This document shows positions 3,309 through 30,467 of a stretch of 64,000 nt of DNA, piece after piece. A program made the position numbers and the translations under genes. The stretch covers positions 50,769 to 114,768 of the forward strand of contig LFCO01000003.1 of assembly GCA_001189165.1 (NCBI GenBank), given 5' to 3'. The notes beneath the pieces are model-generated. The model saw nothing but the letters and a program-made list of their open reading frames with translations, did no database searches and was not told the DNA's origin. Origin of the DNA: Parcubacteria bacterium C7867-005 (GTDB lineage Bacteria > Patescibacteriota > Minisyncoccia > Phycocordibacterales > Zambryskibacteraceae). Numbering within the stretch: the stretch's first letter is position 1; every line of letters begins with the position of its first letter.

Positions 3309-4421
3309 CTAAATCCTCGGACCATTTGAGTGACCACTCATACTGGACAACATCCCTAAAGCAAACCACTCTGTCAAAAGATGTGATCCTCCATAGCTCA
3401 TAAACGGAAAAGTGATCCCCGTCACAGGCAAGACACCCATATTCATACCAGCATGGATGATGATGTGCACGGTGAACAAGATCGCCAGGCCTAAACCAAA
3501 AAGTGATTCGAAATTCGCTGGGGCAAATTGCGCACTATTCACAATTCTGAATAACAAGAGAATACACAGAAACAGGAGGAGGCATGTACCAACCAAACCC
3601 CATTCTTCAGCAAAGGAAGCGAAGATAAAGTCTGTCTGGAACTCTGGTAGAAACCTGAGTTTGGATTGACTGCCCTCTCCGATACCCTTACCAAAAACTT
3701 CTCCTGAACCAACGGCCACCGTGGATTGGTAGGCGTTGTATCCACTGCCGGTGATATTCGCAAGTGGGTGGAGGAAGTTAGCGATACGCGCTTTTTGATA
3801 TGGGGCGAAGACGAAGAACCACATTATCACGGTGACTATCGCACCGAGACCGATGACCAGTGCCAGATGCTTTTTGGATATACCAGAGACGAGGAGCATC
3901 CCAAACCAGATCGCAAAGATGATGACTGCCCCACCAAAATCGGGCTGTAAGAACACTAATAAAAAAACGATCAAAGCATAAATACCAGAGACAATGATGT
4001 GCTTGATATTCGCTATCTCTATATGTCTCCTGGAAAAATACTTGGCCAACATGAGAATGGTCACAAGCTTTGCAGGGTCAGATGGTTGAAAAGCAAAAAA
4101 GCCAAAATCAAACCAGCTTTGTGCTCCTTTGACCACTTGTCCGAGGCCAAACAAAAGCAAAAGTACGAAAACCATAATAAAAAATACAGTCATGAGGATT
4201 CTGGTTTGTCTTAGAAACCTCCAGTCGACGGCGCTCGCAAACACGAACGCCAACACAGATAAAAGTATCCAGATGGCTTGTTTAGAAAAAAATGAATGAT
4301 CGACGGAGAAAGAATTCATGGTGATCAAACCAAACAAAGATATGAGCATGGCTGGTACAAAGAGGTACCAATCGATCCGGATGCGCTCTCCGAATGTTTT
4401 AAAAAGTGAAACTAAACTCAT
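3309..4421 (-). CDS. SEDS-family peptidoglycan glycosyltransferase (FtsW/RodA/SpoVE)
   Basis: 370 aa polytopic membrane protein; C-terminal FtsW/RodA signature (EFQTDFIFASFAEEWG ... FPFMSYGGSHLL). Confidence 0.85.
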   Translation of the reverse strand: MSLVSLFKTFGERIRIDWYLFVPAMLISLFGLITMNSFSVDHSFFSKQAIWILLSVLAFVFASAVDWRFLRQTRILMTVFFIMVFVLLLLFGLGQVVKGAQSWFDFGFFAFQPSDPAKLVTILMLAKYFSRRHIEIANIKHIIVSGIYALIVFLLVFLQPDFGGAVIIFAIWFGMLLVSGISKKHLALVIGLGAIVTVIMWFFVFAPYQKARIANFLHPLANITGSGYNAYQSTVAVGSGEVFGKGIGEGSQSKLRFLPEFQTDFIFASFAEEWGLVGTCLLLFLCILLLFRIVNSAQFAPANFESLFGLGLAILFTVHIIIHAGMNMGVLPVTGITFPFMSYGGSHLLTEWFALGMLSSMSGHSNGPRI

Positions 4422-5227
4422 TTGATGAAACTTCGATCTGGTAAAATTCTGAGGAAAATTTCTGCTACATTTGTAGGATTAACAAAACCACTATTCCAAA
4501 CAAAAACCAACGGAGTAAATGCTCCTGGGTCTATGCTGTCTACGAATGTTTTCCCAGCTGTCACCACGTTACCACTTGGATCTGAAACCACCGCCACTAA
4601 CTCTATATTCGAAACTGCTGACAAAGATTTATTCAGCAGCCGGGCATCTAACCTCGCAGAAGTAGTCGCCCCTGAAAGTGTGATGTTTTCTATGGCTAAA
4701 TCAGGAGTGACGCGCTCATCTTTCTGCCAAACCAAAGTGTCTTCTGACCAAGCGAAGGTTGCTCTGGTGGGTATCGCATCTTCGAATACATACGGACCTT
4801 CGAATATGGCAAATGTAGAAGATTTGGGGACAAAAGTTTTACCGAGGATTGTCTTGATAGGGACAGAACTCGAGGCGTTAAAATATTTTATGGTGTATTC
4901 GGCTCTATTGATCATCCCATAAACATTTGGATTCTCTAGATTTATTAGTGTGACAAAAGTTTTATCACTAACTCTTATTAGCCTTGGATCGCCCTTGGAT
5001 ATCACTGGTAGAGATTCTGCAGGGCAGATCAAACTGCACGAACCACCACAATCCACTCCTGACTCATCCCCATTTCTTCTTTGGTCAAAACATGTTGGTT
5101 TTTGATGTAGAAAAAAATACAAAGGTAAACCAACTACGACAATCAAAAAGATGAGAACGATGGATAAAATAATCCTCTTCCTGCGTATAGACCATTGATT
5201 CATAAGAATAATTATAGCAAAAAACAC
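4418..5227 (-). CDS. Hypothetical membrane-anchored protein
   Basis: 269 aa, single N-terminal TM, Cys cluster (DCGGSCSLICP); 4-bp overlap with downstream SEDS gene suggests co-transcription. Confidence 0.45.
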   Translation of the reverse strand: MFFAIIILMNQWSIRRKRIILSIVLIFLIVVVGLPLYFFLHQKPTCFDQRRNGDESGVDCGGSCSLICPAESLPVISKGDPRLIRVSDKTFVTLINLENPNVYGMINRAEYTIKYFNASSSVPIKTILGKTFVPKSSTFAIFEGPYVFEDAIPTRATFAWSEDTLVWQKDERVTPDLAIENITLSGATTSARLDARLLNKSLSAVSNIELVAVVSDPSGNVVTAGKTFVDSIDPGAFTPLVFVWNSGFVNPTNVAEIFLRILPDRSFIK

Positions 5228-5260: not shown

Positions 5261-5370
5261 AGTTCTGGCGACTAGCTACTTTCCCCCATAGGAGTATCAT
5301 CGCCTCAACAAGGCTTAACTTCCGTGTTCGGAATGAGAACGGGTGTGACCCTTGCGACAAATCACCAGAA
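5261..5370 (-). rRNA. rrf: 5S ribosomal RNA
   Basis: Reverse complement reads gttctggtgatttgtcgcaagggtcacacccgttctcattccgaacacggaagttaagcc...cgccagaac with paired termini, matching canonical bacterial 5S loop motifs (CCGAACACGGAAGTTAAG). Confidence 0.85.
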
Positions 5371-5535
5371 CTAAACTTTCAAATACATACAAAAAAACCG
5401 ACTGGAAACATTTTATCTTTTTGTTTTGGAAAATAAACACCAAATGGTTTGATCCCATTTAGCAGAACAGAGCATCCACATCAGACAACTGCAAGCAGTG
5501 GACATCTGATATGGGTTTGTGATTTCTAAATTTCC

Positions 5536-8455
<2,920 letters not shown>

Positions 8456-8961
8456 TTAGGAAATTTAAAAACCACTTACTTTTACTTCGCTCACGAATAA
8501 ATTCGCGAGACGAAGGAGTGCCGAGTTTGCACCGTCCAGTGCAAACTCGACCTGCTCTGTTCTGCTAAATGAAATCAATCATTTAGCAATTTATTTTCCT
8601 GCCCACCTCCATGTGTTTAAAGACCCCAAAACACCCTCTCGCTTGCGCGAGAAAGTGTCCTGATTCCGTCTTGCGACGGAATCATGGAGACACACGTGGT
8701 GGAATTAAAATGTCAAAGTTCGGGCCCAAAAATGAAGACCTCCGCTTCTTTCAAAGCGGAGGTCTTTTGAGACCAAAGCTAGCCGTTTGGCTAGCTTTTT
8801 CGCTTTGAAGAATTAAGGTTTTTAAACATTTTTGGGTCTCCGTATCTTATCTTTTCTCTCTTTATCTGTCAACAAGCCCACCATTTCCCCTTTTTACCCC
8901 TTTTGGGTATATCCTCATGCTTATCCCTTGACGACATAATGACAGGGTATATGCTTAGGGT

Positions 8962-27979: not shown

Positions 27980-28966
27980 TTATTTGAGTACTTCCTTCAA
28001 ATCTAAAAACTGCTCTCTTATTTTATAAGTATCCCCATGTTTAAGTAGCCCCAGATACGAAGCTCTAGTTTCTTTAGATTGATTCGTTTTCAGATTCTTC
28101 AACACCCTCCTCTTAGTAGCCGTCCTTAGTATCCTGTGGGTCGGAAAGTGAATCCAACCGAGGAAATCTACTCCGGAAACAAGGGTTTTGATAGAGACCT
28201 TACTAGGGTGCAGTTCTAGCTTTAGTTTCTCCGATAGGAACACCTTCATAGACCCGAGAGTATTTGTTAACCCTGATTTATCTGGAGACAGAAGAACGAA
28301 ATCATCTGCATAGCGGATGTAGTACTTGATTTTCAGTTTATGCTTCACAAAGTGATCAAACTCGTTCATGTAGATATTGACCAAAAGTTGAGAGGTGAGG
28401 TTTCCCAGAGGTAGTCCCTTGCCTTCAGTGCTAGAGTTAAAGCTTTCTATCACTCTCTCCAGAAGATTGAGAGTGTCTTTGTCTTCTATGTATTTGGTAA
28501 GGATATTAAGCAAGATTTGGTGATCTATGGAGGCAAAGAATTTGCGCATATCGCACTTCAGTGTCCAAGAAGTTTTGGTGTTATTCTTTGAGATCTTGTA
28601 ACCAAAACTTCTGAACCTGTTCAGGGCCTTGTGTGTACCCTTATTCAAACGGCAGGAATATGAGTCATGGATGAACTTCTTGTCGAAGTATGGGTATAAG
28701 ACTCTGTATATAGCATGGTGGAGTAATCTGTCTCGAACTGATGCTTTGTGAATATTCCGAGGCTTGGGATCTGAGATGTTGAAGGCTTGATAATCTGAGT
28801 GACTGTATGTCTTGTTCAATAAGTCTTGATGGAGGTCAAATATATTTTCTGAAAGATTTAGGCTAAAGATGGCAACATCTTTTCTTTGTCTTTTACCACA
28901 AATGAATTCCTCCCATGCTTTGTATAAATTTTCTATTGATATGATACTCTGATAATTCATGAACAC
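27980..28966 (-). CDS. Diversity-generating retroelement (DGR) reverse transcriptase
   Basis: 328 aa; RT motifs incl. YADD (IRYADDFVLL) and the DGR-diagnostic [I/L]GxxxSQ box (GLPLGNLTSQLLVNIYMNEFDHF) replacing QGxxxSP; same size as phage BPP-1 bRT; adjacent to Avd and TR/VR. Confidence 0.85.
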   Translation of the reverse strand: MFMNYQSIISIENLYKAWEEFICGKRQRKDVAIFSLNLSENIFDLHQDLLNKTYSHSDYQAFNISDPKPRNIHKASVRDRLLHHAIYRVLYPYFDKKFIHDSYSCRLNKGTHKALNRFRSFGYKISKNNTKTSWTLKCDMRKFFASIDHQILLNILTKYIEDKDTLNLLERVIESFNSSTEGKGLPLGNLTSQLLVNIYMNEFDHFVKHKLKIKYYIRYADDFVLLSPDKSGLTNTLGSMKVFLSEKLKLELHPSKVSIKTLVSGVDFLGWIHFPTHRILRTATKRRVLKNLKTNQSKETRASYLGLLKHGDTYKIREQFLDLKEVLK

Positions 28967-29001
28967 TAATCATACTCAATACCCCCCCCCGAGAAGCACC
29001 C

Positions 29002-29346
29002 ATGGTGCTCCTCAAATCGAAAGATGCATACAGACTTTGGCTTAAGATTGAAAGAGACCTGCCCAAGGTTGAAAGATTGGGTATCGGAAACAAAATTGAT
29101 TCTACTTTCCTAGAGTTCTTGGAAATTCTATTTGTATCTAGCTATACAGCCCTAGACAAAAAACTTTTGCTGCTTGGACAAGCGATGTCAAAACACGATT
29201 CTCTCAAATTTTTCTGCCAGATTGCTTGGGAAAACAAATTGATTCATACATCAAAGTATTCTGAGCTTTCAGCCCATCTTGAAGAGATTGGAAGAATGCT
29301 TGGTGGCTGGCGAAAGGGGCTACAAACAAAACTCCCAGCCAATTAG
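29002..29346 (+). CDS. avd: DGR accessory variability determinant (Avd), four-helix-bundle family
   Basis: 114 aa, basic; C-terminus EEIGRMLGGWRKGLQTK resembles Bordetella phage bAvd AEVGRILGSWIARVNRK; immediately abuts TR. On the opposite strand to RT, TR and target. Confidence 0.7.
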   Translation: MVLLKSKDAYRLWLKIERDLPKVERLGIGNKIDSTFLEFLEILFVSSYTALDKKLLLLGQAMSKHDSLKFFCQIAWENKLIHTSKYSELSAHLEEIGRMLGGWRKGLQTKLPAN

Positions 29347-29368
29347 GTCGGGAGAAAAACAGCATTTT

Positions 29369-29477
29369 CGAGAGAACGCACGATTGCCAGCGTTCCACCT
29401 GTTGTCGTCGCGGCGCCACGTGTTCACGTTCCACTTGCCATCATCGGCATTCCAGTTCACGTTCACGACACAGGAAG
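29369..29477 (-). repeat. DGR template repeat (TR)
   Basis: 109-bp repeat; 93 of 109 bp identical to VR at 29795-29903. On the minus strand all 16 mismatches are at TR adenines (16 of 24 adenines), with no other differences. Confidence 0.85.
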
Positions 29478-29699
29478 CATTGTTCTCGTACGAGGTTACA
29501 TCCATACCACCGCCAGCCGATCACTCGATTGGTTGTATTTTATTTGGGACATATAAGTCCTCCACAACCCCGTACCAAATCTTGTTATTTTTTAAAGAAA
29601 ATTATTGCTCTCGTGTATAAGACGTATCCAATACACTCTCACATATAATTCTCCCAAACTGTGCCAAGAAAGCCGTGGCCATCTTGCTCACACAAGTTC

Positions 29700-29733
29700 T
29701 CAATCATTATACAAAAAAATGGACCCTTCAGTT
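29700..29733 (-). terminator. Rho-independent terminator after DGR target gene, immediately followed by a TATAAT -10-like box
   Basis: ggacccttcgaaactgaagggtcc hairpin plus T7 run (minus sense), then ttgtataatg. Confidence 0.55.
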
Positions 29734-29790
29734 TCGAAGGGTCCAAGGTTCCTAGGTTCCAAGAATCAGAGAGACTCAAGGAACCAAGAT

Positions 29791-30390
29791 TCAGCGAGAG
29801 AACGCACGATCGCCAGCGCTCCACCCGATGACGTCGCGGCGCCACGTGCCCACGTTCCACCGGCCAACATCGGCAAGCCAGCGCACGACCACGACACAGG
29901 AAGAGGTGTAGAAGAGGTTGGCGAACCCGTTGTTCAAGAGTTCGCCCTCCTTGCCTCCCTCCTGCTCCGTGATGAGCTTCTGGATCACGGCACAGACTTC
30001 AACTTCGGTGAAGATGTGCCCGTTGCCGAGCATCTCTTCGATCTCCTTGTCCGTCATGTCGCGTGGGAGTGCAACGCTCTTCGACACGATCGGCTTCGCC
30101 TGCTCGCCTTTACCAACCTTGGCAAGAACGAGATCACGGAAACCGTCGTAGATGAAGAGGTCGGAACGGGTCTGGAAGAACTCGTGGTAATAGGGAGCGG
30201 GCATCTCCGTCACAGTGAATTTCACCGTGTCGTCGAGGATCCCGCGAGCGACCTGCCCACCACCGATCTTCTTGACGAGAGCGTTAAGCTCCCCTTGCGT
30301 CCAGTCCTTGGTCGTCCAGTTCATCGCTGTCTCCTTGGGCTTCGTTGCCCAAAAGATTTTGCCTCTCACCCGAGGCGGGGTCGTGGCCAA
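29791..30390 (-). CDS. DGR target protein (C-terminal variable region, putative C-type-lectin/FGE-like ligand-binding fold)
   Basis: 199 aa; C-terminus CVVVVRWLADVGRWNVGTWRRDVIGWSAGDRAFSR corresponds to TR-encoded CVVNVNWNADDGKWNVNTWRRDDNRWNAGNRAFSR (Asn AAY codons diversified); GC-rich (about 58%). Confidence 0.75.
   Translation of the reverse strand: MATTPPRVRGKIFWATKPKETAMNWTTKDWTQGELNALVKKIGGGQVARGILDDTVKFTVTEMPAPYYHEFFQTRSDLFIYDGFRDLVLAKVGKGEQAKPIVSKSVALPRDMTDKEIEEMLGNGHIFTEVEVCAVIQKLITEQEGGKEGELLNNGFANLFYTSSCVVVVRWLADVGRWNVGTWRRDVIGWSAGDRAFSR
29795..29903 (-). repeat. DGR variable repeat (VR) at 3' end of target gene
   Basis: See TR; lies within the last 37 codons of ORF 29791-30390 and ends 1 bp before its stop codon. 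Confidence 0.85.
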
Positions 30391-30467
30391 AAGACCACCT
30401 TACAAAGTGCTGTTACCTATATATTATACACACAAATAACCTCATTTGTCAATAGGACAAATGGGCC

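Follow-up and report, generated by a model that had tools for sequence, protein, structure and literature searches.

Covarying RNA domain upstream of the template repeat in a predicted diversity-generating retroelement of Parcubacteria bacterium C7867-005

The mechanism of reverse transcription in diversity-generating retroelements (DGRs) is known mainly from one phage element, that of the Bordetella phage BPP-1, so that a second RNA architecture would show which of its features are universal. In the Bordetella system, cDNA synthesis starts at G117 of the template repeat (TR), and the TR bases that follow are paired to a primer strand situated just behind an Avd-binding stem-loop (Handa et al., bioRxiv 10.1101/2023.10.23.563531). 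In the same study, a stem-loop of this kind just downstream of the TR was inferred in 207 of 278 Avd-containing DGRs, some of them belonging to the Candidate Phyla Radiation (CPR). The CPR are already known as the most DGR-rich organisms. The architecture termed B3, TR-(avd)-RT, makes up 90% of the CPR DGR set and is found almost nowhere else (Wu et al. 2018, NAR 46:11, PMC5758913), and a Patescibacteria-restricted, cell-encoded DGR "clade 2" has been defined, whose targets have no recognisable domains (Roux et al. 2021, PMC8144416). Here we analyse a locus in a 64,000-nucleotide stretch of DNA (the window) from Parcubacteria bacterium C7867-005 (contig LFCO01000003.1, positions 50,769 to 114,768 of the forward strand). 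With high confidence, we regard it as a bona fide chromosomal DGR of the Patescibacteria-specific lineage, with architecture B3 and belonging to clade 2 of Roux et al. Its components, in window coordinates, are the following.

27980-28966, minus strand: DGR reverse transcriptase (RT), 328 aa from GTG 28966 or, in the public record, 326 aa from ATG 28960.
29002-29346, plus strand: avd (accessory variability determinant), 114 aa, net basic, with matches to DivGenRetAVD and bAvd.
29369-29477, minus strand: TR, 109 nt containing 24 adenines.
29795-29903, minus strand: variable repeat (VR), spanning the final 36 codons of the target.
29791-30390, minus strand: target gene, whose ORF gives 199 aa from TTG 30390; the more probable start at ATG 30324 gives 177 aa.

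The TR and the VR align without gaps, with 93 of 109 positions identical, and all 16 mismatches fall on adenines of the TR (A>G 8, A>T 5 and A>C 3, from TR to VR). While 16 of the 24 TR adenines are changed in the VR, none of the 85 non-A positions is; the hypergeometric probability that chance would place all 16 mismatches on the 24 adenines among 109 positions amounts to 1.2e-13. Identity collapses directly beyond the 109 nt, where the flanks are unrelated. Read in the frame of the VR, the TR contains eight AAY codons; the VR recodes seven of them, and no third codon position is substituted within the 109 nt. The 3' end of the VR lies 1 nt before the TGA of the target open reading frame (ORF). 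The first-pass annotation of this DNA, made from the sequence alone, had reported these repeat coordinates, the 93/109 identity, the confinement of all 16 mismatches to adenines and the end of the VR 1 nt before the stop of a 199-aa ORF; a gapless re-alignment tabulated by TR base reproduced all of them, and the TR- and VR-frame peptides it quoted, with recoding at Asn-type codons, are correct. A repeat finder returned the TR and the VR as the sole long repeat pair of the region, and a scan of the window for a further VR or remote target, based on non-A identity to the TR, recovered only these two.

The RT carries the [I/L/V]GxxxSQ box in motif 4 (GLPLGNLTSQ) and a YADD motif, and matches RVT_1 of Pfam (4e-26). 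Its best match in the PDB, obtained with phmmer, is bRT of the Bordetella phage DGR (8ub7, E 4.7e-39), while the next one, a retron-type or group II intron RT, has an E of 1.8e-20. In the alignment with bRT, the signature boxes coincide (GLPLGNLTSQ/GIPIGSLTSQ and YADD/YMDD), as does the segment of the first catalytic Asp (LKCDMRKFF/LKSDFSKFF). The assignment to DGR RTs from the box and YADD is thus borne out, bRT being by far the best solved relative, with its motifs aligned. Among NCBIfam models, the 114-aa basic protein proposed to be Avd-like fits DivGenRetAVD best (1.1e-14, 54.6 bits, cut-off 80), and among Pfam models bAvd (2e-9, 38.3 bits, cut-off 40). A clade profile built from 17 homologues retrieved two Avd structures as its top two PDB matches, 4dwl (Bbp7/Avd, E 0.006) and 8ub7_B (Avd, E 0.04). 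The profile match spans positions 7-115, nearly the full length, and includes a C-terminal E-x-G-[KR]-x-L-G-x-W motif. Both the family matches and the clade-profile matches support homology to Avd.

The same findings bear on a different explanation, in which the TR and the VR would be a diverged gene-fragment duplication lying by chance near an unrelated retron or group II intron enzyme. The public annotation of the RT as "retron-type" and its top NCBIfam score, obtained with a group II intron RT/maturase model (144 bits, cut-off 300), point in that direction. The adenine specificity (16 of 16 differences at A, P ~1e-13) effectively refutes it, and it is further opposed by bRT being the best solved relative, by the presence of Avd, by the finding of the same cassette organisation with differing target families in dozens of genomes, and by the lack of intron RNA domains or retron msr/msd in Rfam searches. 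We consider a chance duplication practically negligible, and read the locus as a complete DGR, whose four components, as listed in the first-pass annotation, are all real and each pass independent tests.

More than 8000 relatives of the RT are present in the database. The closest are 65-72% identical, and nearly all of those with a specific source name are from Patescibacteria; hundreds of Patescibacteria RTs are 60-72% identical to it. We surveyed 80 genome loci of RT relatives by script. In every locus with upstream DNA (~75), avd lies directly upstream of the RT on the opposite strand, and all 51 loci with a detectable adenine-biased TR/VR pair show the order target/VR, TR, avd stop, RT. 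The spacer between VR and TR measures 317 nt here and mostly 300-400 nt in these 51 relatives, and the TR lies 0-30 nt from the avd stop codon in nearly all loci. The window follows this plan. Its avd is on the plus strand, opposite to the RT, TR, VR and target, an orientation that the first-pass annotation had left unstated; its start diverges from that of the RT across 35-41 bp, and the gene converges on the TR, with 22 nt between the TR end and the avd stop codon. With avd reversed between TR and RT, and the target with its VR upstream on the RT strand, the arrangement is that of B3. The inverted avd is hence not new, and the window DGR is a typical B3 member: the special status implied for it at first does not hold, since the very large DGR clade of Patescibacteria in which it falls has a fixed layout that has already been published. 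The divergent gap between RT and avd (28961-29001) contains a C8 run (ACCCCCCCCGAG, plus strand), and a promoter-like site was detected for neither of the two genes.

Directly 5' of the TR, we found a conserved structured RNA domain, with the following parts.

29488-29642, minus strand: the whole domain, ~150 nt, supported by covariation.
29636-29613, minus strand: P1 hairpin with a UACG tetraloop.
29596-29574, minus strand: A-rich strand.
29575-29564 with 29498-29488, minus strand: P2, a long-range helix of 10-12 bp that encloses P3, CAAATAAAATACAAC, P4 and GGCGGTGGTATGGATG.
29560-29547, minus strand: P3 hairpin.
29546-29532, minus strand: conserved loop, an invariant-like single strand, CAAATAAAATACAAC.
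29532-29517, minus strand: P4 hairpin, variable.
29514-29499, minus strand: second conserved single strand, GGCGGTGGTATGGATG.

The domain was identified in a structure-blind MAFFT alignment of the 170-190 nt upstream of the TR from 48 loci, for which RNAalifold predicted 27 pairs, 24 of them with compensatory double changes. Standard pairs occupy 95.9% of the alignment cells, against 35-49% after the 3' partners are shifted by 1-3 columns, and the covariation score of 0.829 compares with at most 0.215 in controls; none of 500 shuffles reached the observed values. A covariance model of the P2-P4 core (R1), built from the 48 loci, matched the window once in its 64 kb, at 29476-29606 on the minus strand over the full model length (103.6 bits, E 1e-20, the window sequence being in the seed). 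R1 gave 71 matches in RT loci, including 24 loci outside the seed, all of them on the RT strand, upstream of avd and roughly 450-700 nt upstream of the RT start, and it found no copy in two loci with orphan target homologues without RT. Among Rfam 15 families, including RT-1 to RT-19 and hence RT-10/Sp, none matched the domain even at E<=10. These RT-associated motifs were described by Weinberg et al. 2017 (PMC5737381), RT-10 being the Bordetella TR-brt spacer (Sp). The domain also lies outside the scope of the published structural study, because Handa et al. (bioRxiv 10.1101/2023.10.23.563531) checked other DGRs by single-sequence folding of 40 nt upstream and 100 nt downstream of the TR. We found no description of it in the literature, a mention in Paul et al. 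2017 (Nat Microbiol 2:17045), on CPR DGRs, not being excluded, and it seems to be unreported.

In one of the relatives (L040), the RNA domain is present in two identical copies (924-1069 and 4293-4438), and two avd matches lie 3.4 kb apart, possibly a duplicated DGR core or an assembly repeat.

The domain could in principle be an RNA of its own, a cis-regulatory leader or a small RNA that controls TR transcription or senses a signal, rather than a part of the template RNA. Consistent with this, it has no detectable similarity to the Bordetella Sp/RT-10 or to any Rfam family, and it contains a weak promoter-like site (29630-29601, 9/12 match). However, the domain abuts the TR: the 3' strand of P2 is 10 nt from the TR here and 10-25 nt in relatives, and in some loci the TR/VR homology begins right at that strand. 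All 72 matches are on the TR strand and orphan target loci have none; two of its elements, an ANUU tetranucleotide and the A-rich strand, co-vary with the 3' boundary and flank of the TR, as described below; and the Bordetella system likewise needs RNA flanking the TR on both sides. A separate RNA therefore appears improbable to us, and we take the domain as the probable 5' part of the template RNA.

On the other side of the TR, two further elements were found.

29355-29368, minus strand: U-rich 3' flank of the TR (AAAATGCTGTTTTT), which together with the last TR bases forms the CGAAANT boundary motif, resembling the initiation-of-mutagenic-homing element of the TR (IMH*).
29323-29354, minus strand: stem-loop CTCCCG/TGGGAG (29354-29332) followed by the U-tract TTTTGTTTG (29331-29323).

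In the window, the hairpin reads CTCCCG-acctaattggc-TGGGAG, and the avd stop codon (29344-29346) is located in its loop. Relatives show the same succession directly 3' of the TR, namely a short U-rich stretch, then a hairpin followed by UUUU[C/G]UUU, with the avd stop in the loop or in an arm. Their stems are 6-12 bp long and differ in sequence while staying complementary (CTTCCGC/GCGGAAG, CCGCGCT/GGTGCGG, CTCATCCA/TGGATGAG and CTCCTCTCGGAT/ATCTGGGAGGAG are examples), and in most loci the stem-loop is found at +33 to +44 from the motif at the TR end. A per-locus search for anchored stems, in which anchoring failed in ~12 loci, gave a mean of 6.7 bp versus 4.35 bp in shuffles. RNAalifold returned no pairs for a MAFFT alignment of this 3' region because stem lengths and positions vary. 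By analogy with the 5' stem-loop of Sp in Bordetella, and with a position that agrees with the one inferred in other DGRs, this one is probably the Avd-binding stem-loop, an intrinsic terminator of the template RNA, which it resembles in shape, or both.

The repeats themselves end in conserved motifs. In most of 46 loci, CGAAA[C/G/A]T closes the TR, with CGCAA[C/A]T in its place in one subgroup, while the VR ends in CGCAA[C/G]T in 38 of the 46. Similarity between TR and VR stops right after this 7-nt boundary motif, and A>N substitutions occur only 5' of it. The difference at the third base of the motif, A in the TR and C in the VR, is almost constant and synonymous (CGA/CGC), and therefore represents a fixed distinction of the IMH*/IMH type and not random A-mutagenesis. 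In the window, the TR has CGAAAAT and the VR CGCTGAA, and both contain a 15-nt A-free stretch, TCGTGCGTTCTCTCG. By comparison with Bordetella, the first base to be copied would be the G of CG preceding AAANU, with GAAANU as the template strand of the primer duplex.

Two candidate partners for GAAANU were found. The first is the end of the 3' stem with its U-tract ([A/G]GUUUU), which offers 5-6 contiguous pairs 33-44 nt downstream in most loci. The second, located before P2 in the 5' domain, is the tetranucleotide ANUU, whose variable base co-varies with that of the TR motif (G:C, C:G, U:A, A:U; permutation P ~1e-4, phylogeny ignored). In addition, the A-rich strand of the 5' domain would pair with the U-rich flank of the TR more strongly in cognate than in non-cognate combinations (-5.5 versus -4.1 kcal/mol; permutation P ~5e-5, phylogeny ignored), and interruptions on one side are matched on the other (AUGAAGA:UCUUUUCAU, AAACAU:AUGUUU, AAAGAAA:UUUCUUU). 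This pairing resembles the "cPRT Stop" duplex between upstream and downstream RNA in Bordetella. A column-pair scan between the upstream and downstream alignments yielded intra-domain helices only and no convincing long-range helix, so that the support for the A-rich/U-rich pairing comes only from the comparison of cognate with non-cognate duplexes.

Three further candidates were examined and rejected. Pairing of UUGGUG in the 5' domain with the antisense-avd segment CCACCAAG (MLGGW codons) is not maintained, as the Gly/Leu wobble positions vary without compensation. A hairpin or cruciform of the Bordetella kind at the end of the VR is inconsistent across loci (22 of 46). An extension of the VR by 4 nt (CGAAAA in the TR versus CGCTGA in the VR), in which the stop codon would result from A-mutagenesis, matches at one of the four extra positions; we rejected it because the TR reads AAAA there, leaving no statistical support, and the clade comparison suggests a deletion instead.

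Taken together with the homology to the Bordetella phage system, these elements outline how the DGR would work. A minus-strand RNA would run from the 5' domain (~29642-29488) through the TR to the 3' stem-loop and U-tract, within putative transcription limits, and would be bound by an RT-Avd complex, presumably also through the 5' domain. Synthesis of cDNA would begin at the 3' boundary of the TR, at the G that ends TCTCG just before AAAAT, from a primer strand paired to GAAAAU. The RT would misincorporate opposite template adenines, and the cDNA would then replace the target's 3'-terminal VR, recoding up to ~12 codons (mainly AAY). The surface changed in this way would be small and ligand-binding, probably of the C-type-lectin-like kind. 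Since avd, in antisense, follows directly downstream of the TR, there is no room for a downstream spacer RNA of the 140-nt Bordetella type, and we propose that the clade places its RT-positioning RNA elements upstream of the TR, in the conserved 5' domain. The fuller version of this proposal, to which we give slightly less than even credence, is that the 5' domain (P1-P4, UNCG-capped hairpins and two invariant single strands) takes over the roles of Sp in RT positioning and primer delivery, that the 3' side is reduced to the stem-loop and U-tract, and that the domain represents an undescribed RNA family in thousands of CPR genomes. The stem-loop with its U-tract, embedded antisense at the avd stop, may also terminate the template RNA.

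Several observations weigh against this reading of the locus. The Avd scores stay under the curated cut-offs of both NCBIfam and Pfam. The pairing between the 5' domain and the TR flank involves A/U-rich, low-complexity sequence and a permutation test blind to phylogeny, and we therefore rate the long-range pairing of the 5' domain with the TR 3' boundary and flank as moderately supported. Promoter searches gave no convincing candidate for the template RNA, the RT or avd; and should the TR-proximal hairpin and U-tract terminate the RNA, the RT would be left without an obvious transcript and may depend on read-through of this hairpin, antisense to avd. Finally, the VR of the window ends in CGCTGAA and not in the CGCAA[C/G]T kept in 38 of 46 relatives, a conserved CTTRG element downstream of the VR (CTTGG here) is 3 nt closer than in relatives, and the database holds one version of the VR only, as judged from the protein cluster of the target.

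The last of these points bear on whether the element is still at work. At the homing boundary of the VR, 3 nt have apparently been deleted (AAC/AAG lost from CGCAACTGA), and this might have taken part of the IMH-like homing signal, so that the DGR was recently inactivated and its VR is now frozen. Besides the deviating VR end and the shortened distance to CTTRG, the absence of VR variants among the database members speaks for such a scenario: three members of the 90% cluster of the target have identical VRs. On the other hand, RT, avd, TR and RNA domain remain intact, the VR-end motif is altered in eight further loci as well, and there are no non-A mismatches between TR and VR, so that any inactivation must be very recent. 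A frozen VR seems to us the less probable alternative, about as expected as one outcome among four. The earlier statement that the element "is or recently was active" is only half supported: the absence of non-A mismatches and the intact ORFs of RT, avd and target, with an RNA domain that scores like those of relatives, argue for recent activity, but the VR end deviates and only a single VR version is recorded. Judged from the sequence, recent activity is very likely, while for present-day activity the chances appear about even.

The target corresponds to locus AB200_01960 of Parcubacteria bacterium C7867-005 (100% match). Its start is probably ATG 30324 (177 aa), with AAGGAG 6 nt upstream. 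No Pfam or NCBIfam domain matched the protein, FGE-sulfatase and DUF1566 included. The database contains 26 homologues, the few with a source name being from Patescibacteria, which have a common C-terminal framework, LLNNGYANLFYTSSCVVxVxWxADxRxWxVxTWxRxDxxWxAGxRVFS, where x is variable. As to the C-type-lectin-type fold considered in the first-pass annotation, the structure model of the target is weakly C-type-lectin-like, and Foldseek found no match for this model in the PDB.

The 66 nt upstream of the probable ATG (30325-30390, minus strand) are open in the target frame, and their translation, PPRVRGK..A[TS]KPKE, is kept in homologues P0002, P0004 and P0024. The stretch is either an N-terminal extension starting from TTG, with AAGGTGG upstream, or a conserved element of the 5' untranslated region (UTR); it holds a small hairpin, GCCTCgggtgaGAGGC (30376-30361). 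Two homologues, P0024 (L001:5267-6633) and P0017 (L003:5197-6552), have no RT or avd within 6 kb, and each directly follows a PemK/MazF toxin gene, which in L003 is accompanied by MazE. In L001, the pair of toxin and target homologue sits inside a ribosomal-protein operon, between the L5 and S14 genes, and the target of L004 is preceded by a ParE-type toxin-antitoxin pair. These arrangements suggest that target cassettes travel along with toxin-antitoxin modules, or else that the orphan copies are remote targets. Homologue P0003 contains the VR-type C-terminal module twice, as a truncated copy followed by a complete gene, and on its contig of 1 kb resembles either a tandem of target genes or a fusion.

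The target differs from its surroundings in base composition. From the 5' UTR to the stop (29791-30415, minus strand), its GC content is 57-62%, compared with 39-43% in RT, avd and the neighbouring genes, and the boundaries of the GC-rich segment coincide with the target transcription unit. The gene itself has 59% GC and a GC content at third codon positions (GC3) of 0.78, versus 0.40-0.46 in RT, avd, the peptidase ORF, glyS and the ORF beyond glyS. The same tendency is seen in the relatives, where the GC3 of the target, VR excluded, exceeds that of the cognate RT in 38 of 50 loci (means 0.52 versus 0.38, Wilcoxon P 5e-8), most strongly for short targets of 600-750 nt. Depletion of A through off-target adenine mutagenesis was considered as a cause and rejected: A is not depleted relative to T on the sense strand of the target (0.21 versus 0.20), and off-target adenine mutagenesis is therefore not the cause of the GC excess. 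Candidate causes are GC-biased repair accompanying repeated homing of cDNA, or horizontal exchange of target cassettes.

Two expression signals frame the target gene.

30423-30452, minus strand: sigma-70-type promoter TTGACA-18-TATAAT upstream of the target, 12/12 consensus match.
29713-29745, minus strand: intrinsic terminator-like hairpin with T7, after the target gene.

The cassette is flanked by what we take, from inspection of the translations, to be a gene for an M16-family peptidase and glyS. The window also carries 23S and 5S rRNA genes and eight tRNA genes, and the cassette is therefore chromosomal. The 23S and 5S genes are at 5263-8458 on the minus strand, and the 23S gene fits the full-length model without insertions. 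No 16S rRNA gene was found in the 64 kb of the window, so the rRNA operon appears to be unlinked.

As a DGR, the locus holds nothing new in principle. Its value is that of a clean, complete, single-target reference copy on a 257 kb contig of a defined genome. New from the comparison with ~80 relatives are the covarying 5' RNA missing from Rfam, the stem-loop and U-tract across the avd stop, the TR- and VR-end motifs of the clade that delimit mutagenesis, and the systematic GC3 excess in targets. The 5' domain is what a reconstitution of a CPR DGR in vitro, or its engineering, would have to include. We tentatively suggest, with confidence just short of an even balance, that the template RNA of CPR DGRs is built on another plan than that of the Bordetella paradigm; if true, this would be a second, independently evolved solution for cis-primed reverse transcription in DGRs.

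Compared with the CPR B3 DGRs, the window element has the same gene order with inverted avd, a cellular, chromosomal location, and a small target without recognisable domain or signal. It differs in nothing essential, although its VR-end motif is atypical, and its target family (26 homologues, no Pfam domain) and the copy in this genome have not been individually described in the B3 DGR literature consulted. The 5' domain shares with the motifs RT-1 to RT-19 that it is a conserved structured RNA beside an RT gene, presumed to be part of a retroelement RNA, but it matches none of them and lies upstream of the TR instead of between TR and RT. The similarity of the target to TvpA of Treponema denticola and to FGE-type proteins with a C-type-lectin fold is below the usual significance, and unlike these proteins the target is much smaller and has neither a lipoprotein nor a signal sequence. 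With the Bordetella BPP-1 DGR (mtd-avd-TR-brt; 8ub7), the locus has in common a homologous RT and Avd, adenine-directed mutagenesis of a VR at the C-terminus, a stem-loop directly 3' of the TR, a TR-end motif able to pair with a downstream strand, and, as seen across its clade, an apparent IMH/IMH*-like distinction between the ends of VR and TR. In contrast to Bordetella, where the DGR is phage-borne and diversifies a tail fibre, the element here is chromosomal and has a target of roughly 180 aa; avd is on the opposite strand, at the place of the 140-nt Sp spacer of Bordetella; and a structured domain of ~150 nt precedes the TR, where Bordetella needs only ~20 nt upstream.

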